Source: a virus
Lineage: Duplodnaviria > Heunggongvirae > Uroviricota > Caudoviricetes
Reading direction: 5' to 3' (one strand)
Virus record (IMG/VR): IMGVR_UViG_2563366968_000011
DNA: 5,639 nt
The position numbers and the translations under genes were made by a program. The notes under the pieces were generated by a model, which saw only the letters and a program-made list of their open reading frames with translations, made no database searches and was not told the DNA's origin. Positions 172 through 983 of this stretch are shown here, one piece after another. How positions within the stretch are numbered: position 1 is the stretch's first letter; every line of letters starts with the position of its first letter.

Positions 172-642
172 GTGATTAACGATATCGCGGTTTCCCTTTC
201 AAATATCTGTCGCTTTGCAGGACATCTTTCACACTTCTACAGCGTCGCCCAACATGCGGTGCTTTGCAGCCAGCTGGTACCGCAGGAATTTGCTTTTGAA
301 GCGTTAATGCATGATGCAACAGAAGCGTATTGCCAGGACATCCCAGCTCCACTGAAACGCCTTCTTCCTGACTATAAACGGATGGAAGAAAAAATAGACG
401 CCGTAATCCGTGAGAAATACGGGTTACCTCCTGTTATGAGCACGCCAGTGAAATATGCCGATCTCATTATGCTGGCAACCGAACGTCGCGATCTCGGGCT
501 TGATGATAGCTCTTTCTGGCCTGTACTGGAAGGTATCCCGGCAACAGAGATGTTCAAAGTGATTCCACTGTCGCCAGGCCATGCCTACGGGATGTTTATG
601 GAACGTTTTAACGAGTTATCGGAGTTACGCAAATGCGCATGA
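172..642 (+). CDS. HD-domain phosphohydrolase, YfbR/YfdR-like 5'-deoxynucleotidase family
   Basis: The translation carries the HD metal-binding signature: a His in ...SVAQHAVL... followed about 20 residues later by ...ALMHDATEAYCQDIPAPLK..., which closely resembles the E. coli YfbR motif as I recall it (HDASEVLTGDLPTPVK). The start is uncertain: GTG at 172 has no convincing SD, and an in-frame TAA sits 13 codons upstream with no ATG between. The stop at 640..642 overlaps the next ORF's ATG at 633. Confidence 0.75.
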   Translation: MINDIAVSLSNICRFAGHLSHFYSVAQHAVLCSQLVPQEFAFEALMHDATEAYCQDIPAPLKRLLPDYKRMEEKIDAVIREKYGLPPVMSTPVKYADLIMLATERRDLGLDDSSFWPVLEGIPATEMFKVIPLSPGHAYGMFMERFNELSELRKCA

Positions 643-983
643 ATGTTTTCGAAATGGAAGGGTTTCTTCGCGGGAAATGTGTACCACGAGATCTGAAAGT
701 GAATGAAACAAATGCTGAGTATCTGGTGCGTAAATTCGATGAAGTACGTGCTGAGGCTCGCAACGAGGGTATTAACTATACCGCAAGCCGTCTTGCTGCG
801 GCTTTCAATCACGGATTTATCAATAAGTCTTTACGTGAAGTTTTCGACGTTACACGCATGATTCTGTCAGCGAAAGAAGAGTTGGCTAATGAACCACACC
901 CGATTGATGGCCTGTCCGGTGAATATGCGGAGAAATCCCTAGAAGAATGGGCGGAACAGCTTCGCAAAGGAGGCAACCAGTGA
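633..983 (+). CDS. hypothetical small prophage protein (116 aa), translationally coupled to the HD protein
   Basis: ATG at 633 is preceded by GGAG at 621..624 and overlaps the upstream stop by 10 nt. Its TGA at 981..983 overlaps the next gene's GTG at 980. No recognisable catalytic motif; its position after a YfdR-like gene suggests a YfdS-like partner, but that is inferred from position only. Confidence 0.6.
   Translation: MRMNVFEMEGFLRGKCVPRDLKVNETNAEYLVRKFDEVRAEARNEGINYTASRLAAAFNHGFINKSLREVFDVTRMILSAKEELANEPHPIDGLSGEYAEKSLEEWAEQLRKGGNQ

Follow-up and report, generated by a model that had tools for sequence, protein, structure and literature searches.

The stretch analyzed here, referred to as the window, is 5,639 nucleotides of DNA from a virus of the Caudoviricetes (Duplodnaviria; Heunggongvirae; Uroviricota), IMG/VR record IMGVR_UViG_2563366968_000011. 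Our subject is its left part, in which yfdR, a gene encoding an HD-domain protein, is followed by a gene of 116 codons that overlaps it. An initial annotation, made from the sequence without database searches, placed two overlapping open reading frames (ORFs) here, at 172..642 and 633..983, and saw in them a candidate module for interference with the host. Both ORFs exist and they overlap by 10 nt. The first runs from a GTG to a TGA at 640-642 and encodes 156 amino acids (aa). The second starts with an ATG and encodes 116 aa, and a second in-frame ATG at 639 creates an ATGA overlap with the TGA of the first. Directly upstream lies one end of the insertion sequence IS1, and downstream follows a series of genes that closes with an excisionase and an integrase (Table 1).

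The boundary between IS1 and yfdR can be placed to the base. The match to K-12 IS1A extends without a mismatch from the first base of the window to base 147, which is the curated IS1A boundary and the point at which the terminal inverted repeat ends (...GGAGTCATTACC), and identity collapses directly after it. Translation in frame 1 from base 1 yields the C-terminus of InsB, closed by a TAA at 130-132. At base 148, yfdR resumes with codon 15 (GAC, Asp15), as revealed by alignment to the intact yfdR of E. coli 19AR1724 (locus L001), which encodes 178 aa and is annotated as a 5'-deoxynucleotidase. From this codon on, 164 of 164 residues are identical. Gone from the window copy are the native Shine-Dalgarno (SD) sequence (GGAG), the ATG and codons 1-14 (MSFIKTFSGKHFYY).

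This junction explains the start that the initial annotation had described as atypical, namely a GTG without SD and with an in-frame stop 13 codons upstream. The description itself is accurate, since the TAA at 130-132 is in frame with the GTG at 172 (GTG172) with 13 sense codons between them, and the best pairing to the anti-SD in front of the GTG is -0.9 kcal/mol. What does not stand is the reading of this codon as the start of a gene: GTG172 is the internal codon for Val23. The start appears atypical because IS1 removed codons 1-14 together with the ATG and the SD. The in-frame stop is the stop codon of insB, and the feature properly spans 148..642 rather than 172..642.

Table 1. Features of the window, in order of position, with the basis of each assignment
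Feature	Coordinates	Strand	Basis or remark
IS1 3' (insB-side) end	1..147	+	same orientation as yfdR; 147/147 identity to K-12 IS1A
yfdR' (5'-truncated HD-domain gene), codons 15-178 + TGA stop	148..642	+	100% to 19AR1724 YfdR residues 15-178
GTG, internal Val23 codon of yfdR	172..174	+	alignment to full-length YfdR
Constant N-terminal segment (~36 aa, MRMNVFEMEGFLRGKCVPRDLKVNETNAEYLVRKF) of the gene downstream of yfdR	633..740	+	YfdS match, phrog_583
C-terminal module (~80 aa) of the 116-aa ORF	741..983	+	matches C-termini of longer proteins; not DUF551
Ead/Ea22-like protein, 241 aa, GTG start overlapping previous stop, strong SD	980..1705	+	Pfam PF13935 E 1e-17
XF1762/Mom-like	1708-2199	+	profile matches (Pfam, NCBIfam, PHROG)
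Unlabelled ORF	2201-2650	+	
DUF551 protein, 315 aa	2652-3599	+	profile match
DUF4222	3666-3908	+	profile match
44-aa ORF	3912-4046	+	
Excisionase	4065-4319	+	profile match
Tyrosine integrase	4353-5639	+	profile match

We conclude, with a probability of about 0.88, that the feature is the known lambdoid-prophage gene yfdR in a copy recently disrupted by IS1, that is, an ordinary broken copy and no new host-interference module. Positions 148-5639 of the window are 100% identical to an intact prophage adjoining mlrA in E. coli 19AR1724, and because of this identity the insertion is judged to be recent. It is also rare. More than 5,000 plasmids contain IS1 copies that match bases 1-160, and IS1 matches are found in chromosomes too, amounting to thousands overall. 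Of the 349 E. coli genomes in which coverage reaches 80% or more, none covers bases 1-147 contiguously and all match from base 148 on, and deposited phage genomes (phage cdtI, Stx2c-converting phages) likewise align from base 148 only. The IS1/yfdR junction itself occurs in 0 of 5,426 complete E. coli genomes. Exact-pattern scans for this right junction gave no match in GTDB representative genomes, IMG/VR viral contigs and JGI metagenomes, and neither did scans for the predicted left (opposite) junction in viral contigs and metagenomes. The only locus with the identical junction is a 915-bp metagenome scaffold (L013), which may not be independent of the source of the window. The arrangement resembles IS1 insertional inactivation of prophage genes in that an exact IS1 terminus abuts coding sequence whose 5' end has been removed; it differs in that a single IS1 end is visible here. 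For a simple IS1 insertion, the predicted 9-bp target-site duplication is GACAAGATA.

The gene on the right of the junction is clearly yfdR. The protein of the window matches K-12 YfdR (b2361) at 160 of 164 residues (98%, residues 15-178, BLASTP), as the initial annotation had suspected, and phrog_318 'deoxyribonucleoside 5' monophosphate phosphatase' with an E-value of 3.9e-100. Its assignment to a YfbR/YfdR family of HD enzymes holds for YfdR, of which the gene is an orthologue, but not for YfbR. In the YfbR family PF12917, YfdR scores 24.8 bits against a cut-off of 25.9, and in NCBIfam NF003009 (YfbR) it scores 20 bits against a cut-off of 122 even as a full-length protein, so that YfdR falls outside the curated YfbR families. 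The closest structure listed is that of Atu1052 (PDB 2GZ4), an HD-superfamily protein, with YfbR (2PAQ) and DatZ of phage S-2L (6ZPA) more distant. Candidate metal ligands of YfdR (H50, H69, D70 and D119) align with the H / HD / D positions of Atu1052. In the homologue alignment no substitution occurs at H50, H69 or D119, and D70 is at least 90% conserved; all four are kept in the window copy.

The segment that IS1 removed is also conserved in the family. We compared 93 loci, consisting of 80 viral contigs chosen via YfdR, 10 contigs chosen via the 116-aa protein, K-12, 19AR1724 and scaffold L013. Full-length yfdR, starting MSFIKTFSGKHFYY, is present in 90 of them. The full-length form has 176-180 aa with the N-terminal pattern M-S-[FY]-I-x-T-x-[ST]-G-x-x-[FI]-x-Y, and the window copy is without that segment. 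Within it, M1, I4, T6, G9 and Y14 are conserved at 90% or above among 26 homologues reaching down to 65% identity. An AlphaFold model of full-length YfdR (pLDDT 75.7) places a beta-hairpin of residues 3-5 and 11-13 ahead of helix 1 (24-37). Its conservation across the family suggests that the lost segment contributes to folding or function.

Signals for translation of what remains are sparse. The best anti-SD pairing of -0.9 kcal/mol before GTG172 compares with a window-wide mean of -2.9 kcal/mol, with -6.4 kcal/mol at the native yfdR start, with -6.1 kcal/mol at the 116-aa ORF, whose SD (GGAG) lies at 621-624, and with -11.6 kcal/mol at the Ead/Ea22-like gene that comes next. GTG172 moreover sits within a predicted hairpin of -17.1 kcal/mol. 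The promoter scan, a crude consensus test, detected no sigma-70-like promoter in positions 1-1100. By eye, a weak hybrid promoter (TTGGAG-17-AATAAA) can be seen near the junction; it is below the scan thresholds and was not counted as evidence. Because the start codon and the ribosome-binding site are gone and the gene is parted from its operon promoter, the 156-aa GTG ORF is most likely a pseudogene remnant that would be translated barely or not at all.

In intact relatives, yfdR sits in an operon on the repressor side, which continues through the ea genes as far as xis-int and may be likened to the pL operon of lambda. The earlier placement of the gene in a phage early operon is thus apt for the intact phages, whereas the copy in the window is broken by IS1. 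Here IS1, oriented like the operon, interrupts it inside yfdR. The copy would thereby be left with no start codon, no ribosome-binding site and no conserved N-terminal beta-hairpin, and at least the length of IS1 would separate the remnant from the operon promoter and from yfdP-yfdQ. YfdR is most likely lost. Expression of the 116-aa gene and of the downstream ea-xis-int genes would then depend on read-through of IS1. Since IS1 insertions are classically polar, expression of ea, xis and int is probably reduced.

Several points weigh against the reading of the locus as a recently broken yfdR. The candidate HD ligands are kept, all four of them, as are 156-164 of the 178 residues, and no additional decay is seen, so that translation, if it occurred, could plausibly give a truncated protein. 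Now and then, an IS1 end can create a hybrid promoter. The other end of IS1 lies outside the window, and the single visible end does not distinguish a simple insertion from a deletion or rearrangement mediated by IS1, so that the 5' piece of yfdR and yfdQ may or may not still lie upstream of IS1. One alternative is that the truncated gene is still expressed, through read-through from IS1 or from upstream or through a hybrid promoter, with a start at GTG172, and that YfdR minus residues 1-22 keeps some phosphatase activity or binding to DnaA. We regard this as improbable. The helical HD core from helix 1 onward is kept with all candidate ligands, the 100% identity to the intact allele leaves no sign of secondary decay, and sense read-through is conceivable from an IS1 that is co-oriented with the operon. 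However, the GTG is without SD and buried in the hairpin described above, the scan found no promoter-like site, and the N-terminal segment that such a protein would lack is conserved across the family. The sole possible upstream partner for translational coupling, insB, ends 39 nt upstream, and its own translation requires a rare frameshift.

Less probable still is the proposal of the initial annotation itself, in which the phage HD hydrolase is intact, begins at an unusual GTG and, with its small overlapping partner, would be the orthologue of the yfdQRST host-takeover cluster, acting through inhibition of DnaA-dependent initiation or degradation of signalling nucleotides. The published work to which it refers exists and agrees with its summary. 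Purified K-12 YfdR binds domain I of DnaA in a Phe46-dependent manner, and multicopy yfdQ + yfdR + (yfdS or yfdT) suppresses over-initiation (Noguchi & Katayama 2016, PMC4776307); in later literature, YfdR is cited as competing with DnaB for DnaA. The 98% identity to K-12 YfdR, the conserved HD ligands and the YfdS-like N-terminus of the overlapping ORF are further points in favor of this proposal. However, the same study found that a yfdR frameshift abolishes the suppression, that the phenotype needed multicopy yfdQ too, and that deleting the cluster gives no phenotype (PMC4776307). It also reports YfdR as a weak 5'-deoxynucleotidase and, citing Zimmerman et al. 2008, gives it a nucleotide affinity much lower than that of YfbR (PMC4776307). 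For the window, the proposal is already contradicted by the junction alignment: the ORF start was created by IS1, and the 14 codons that include the ATG are gone together with the SD, leaving a GTG that has none.

Comparison with the K-12 module leads to the same result. K-12 YfdR, encoded in the cryptic prophage CPS-53/KplE1, shares with the window the candidate HD ligands and the downstream overlap with a gene starting MRMNVFEMEGF..., and shares with the intact relatives the same upstream yfdP-yfdQ genes; yfdQ (DUF2303) is present in 84 of the 93 loci. In the K-12 module yfdQ lies directly upstream of yfdR, a position that IS1 occupies in the window, and the yfdR frame is intact, whereas here it is truncated at the 5' end and without start signals. 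The downstream neighbors diverge from yfdS and yfdT beyond the first ~36-42 codons. What the window holds of these two genes are N-terminal similarities of ~42 residues, between ORF 633-983 and YfdS and between ORF 2652-3599 and YfdT. For the latter, the first 42 residues are 83% identical to K-12 YfdT (L002 11874-12179) and the remainder is unrelated, so that no true yfdT is present. The Ead/Ea22-like ORF, which follows where yfdT stands in K-12, was considered as its counterpart and rejected, having no similarity to YfdT. A yfdQ-yfdR-yfdS/T replication-inhibition module thus does not appear to be present in functional form at this locus. The further suggestion of an anti-defence role through hydrolysis of cyclic nucleotides found no support in the sequence, the family matches or the literature retrieved.

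Hardly credible, finally, is an assembly artefact, in which a contig end had run into a repeat or a chimeric join had been made and the real yfdR is intact, because although the window starts inside IS1, as repeat-broken contigs do, and the junction is absent from the 5,426 complete E. coli genomes, the GTDB representatives and the viral and JGI metagenome collections, the break falls at the exact curated terminal base of IS1 as expected of a transposition product and unlike a random chimera, the 147 nt of IS1 exceed the usual k-mer overhang, and the same junction recurs in scaffold L013, albeit perhaps not independently.

Other damaged alleles of yfdR were encountered in the survey. A different remnant, comprising residues ~114-178 only (from VKYADLIML...), is found at L009 (9469-10010) and L012 (GCA_020556595.1 / GCA_020556585.1). 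It adjoins an unrelated 133-aa ORF upstream, the prophage has another early region (Band_7, ORF6N), the same 116-aa gene still follows, and the junction is a point of mosaic recombination inside yfdR. The allele P0001 carries a 33-residue internal tandem duplication that spans the HD motif, for a total of 211 aa. A protein of 156 aa annotated as 'HD family hydrolase' (P0013) was considered as a naturally short YfdR and rejected, since it has a 22-residue internal deletion and a normal N-terminus. P0001 and P0013 would fit a frequent decay of yfdR in cryptic prophages.

Unlike the remnant before it, the 116-aa gene is an intact member of a mosaic family that comprises Eae and YfdS. The similarity to YfdS that the initial annotation had suggested is real for the first ~36-42 residues and goes no further. 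The match to K-12 YfdS is confined to residues 1-42 (88% identity, BLASTP), phrog_583, the YfdS-type N-terminus, matches the same residues, and homology with K-12 at the DNA level breaks off at about base 740 (codon 36). A Pfam search of the ORF returned no match, and DUF551, the domain defining YfdS, is absent. In a database search, the C-terminal ~80 residues recur with 93-99% identity at the C-terminal end of Eae/DUF4752/ead-Ea22-like proteins of 166-202 aa. Four further families (phrog_614, 14548, 368 and 492) match this module via their own C-terminal ends, and two of them also match the neighboring Ead/Ea22-like ORF. An AlphaFold model of the 116-aa protein (pLDDT 50.6) offers no reliable fold, and a PDB sequence search gave chance-level matches only.

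Alignment of these proteins reveals a common plan in three parts: a constant N-segment, which comes in two variants, then a coiled coil or linker that varies, and last a C-terminal domain that can be swapped. The variant form of the N-segment is also carried by proteins labelled 'Eae'. The 116-aa protein shares the constant N-segment with K-12 YfdS and the Eae/Ead-Ea22 proteins from the 'ea' regions of lambdoid and P22-like phages and carries one of the portable C-terminal domains of this family, and it differs from YfdS in the lack of DUF551. It represents the minimal form, an N-segment plus a C-terminal domain with neither the central coiled coil nor an Ead_Ea22 signature. Such mosaicism has been described for Ea22, with a shared N-terminus, a variable coiled coil and a swapped C-terminal domain (PMC10834534).

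In other phages, the gene after yfdR encodes a 120-aa DUF551 protein, the 116-aa protein, a variant of 173, 176, 192, 195 or 229 aa, or an unrelated protein of 292 aa. The last (MCITHVVSFSGGRTSAYLV...) stands directly after yfdR, with no YfdS-family gene, in 10 of the 80 viral contigs (L024, L026, L032, L033, L060, L068, L074, L075, L082 and L091) and resembles, by eye only, an enzyme of the PAPS-reductase/ATP-pyrophosphatase type. With C-termini that are interchangeable and a gene that is sometimes replaced among the 93 loci, the 116-aa ORF is not the dedicated, conserved partner of the HD protein for which it had been taken. In intact phages, a gene of this type is predicted to be translationally coupled to yfdR.

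An unlikely but specific idea for those intact phages is that the ~36-aa N-segment, common to YfdS, the 116-aa ORF and the longer variants, docks onto YfdR or serves it as an adaptor peptide, while the swappable C-terminal domains (DUF551, Eae-type and others) would act as effectors. If so, yfdR and its neighbor would constitute a modular pair that targets DnaA or replication, which could explain why K-12 needs YfdS beside YfdQ and YfdR. The same data also fit plain mosaic recombination in a conserved block of DNA, and the docking idea says nothing for the copy broken by IS1.

The rest of the operon in the window shows further traces of modular exchange. A gene-junction repeat of ~38 nt (CATTCGCATCAAAGGAGAGTGA..ATG) occurs three times, at 1684-1721, 2178-2215 and 2629-2666, and encodes the shared C-terminal ends ...GIRIKGE*/...GTKGD*, besides supplying the following gene with its SD and start. 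Some variants of the YfdS family in other phages, L058 among them, likewise end in ...AGIRIKGE. These repeats look like linkers at which modules of the ea region may be exchanged. The adjacent ORFs 2201-2650 and 2652-3599 contain paralogous segments (ASLEAEPIAW / ASLEAEPVAW, direct repeat D2), and DUF551, which in K-12 is on YfdS, is found here at the C-terminus of the 315-aa ORF. In 19AR1724 the corresponding stretch (L001 8505-9452) is split by RefSeq into a 'partial' DUF551 pseudogene and a 269-aa coding sequence. The window is identical to it in sequence and holds one uninterrupted ORF of 315 aa, as other assemblies also call it, and the split is probably an annotation inconsistency.

Among these genes, the XF1762-family protein at 1708-2199 (163 aa, NCBIfam NF045478, E 5e-61) also matches phrog_1384 'Mom-like DNA modification protein', and its score in Pfam Mom is below the cut-off (22.4 vs 27.1 bits). 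This intact gene possibly acts in DNA modification or anti-restriction and would arguably be of more interest than the HD remnant. At its right end, the window stops with the stop codon of the integrase. Identical intact prophages have mlrA (yehV) next, which places the element beside mlrA, and other relatives with the same operon adjoin a DUF72 gene instead.

Taken by itself, the disrupted gene carries little biological weight, as yfdR is already characterized and occurs in sequenced phages as well as in E. coli genomes by the hundreds, and its interruption by IS1 is routine prophage decay. Its value is corrective. An 'atypical start' beside the end of a repeat element is to be read as a truncation, the 156-aa 'HD hydrolase' is not to be annotated as a functional gene, and its supposed partner is now documented as a mosaic protein of the ea region. 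For the prophage, the insertion may blunt the expression of xis and int and thereby help to lock the element in place.

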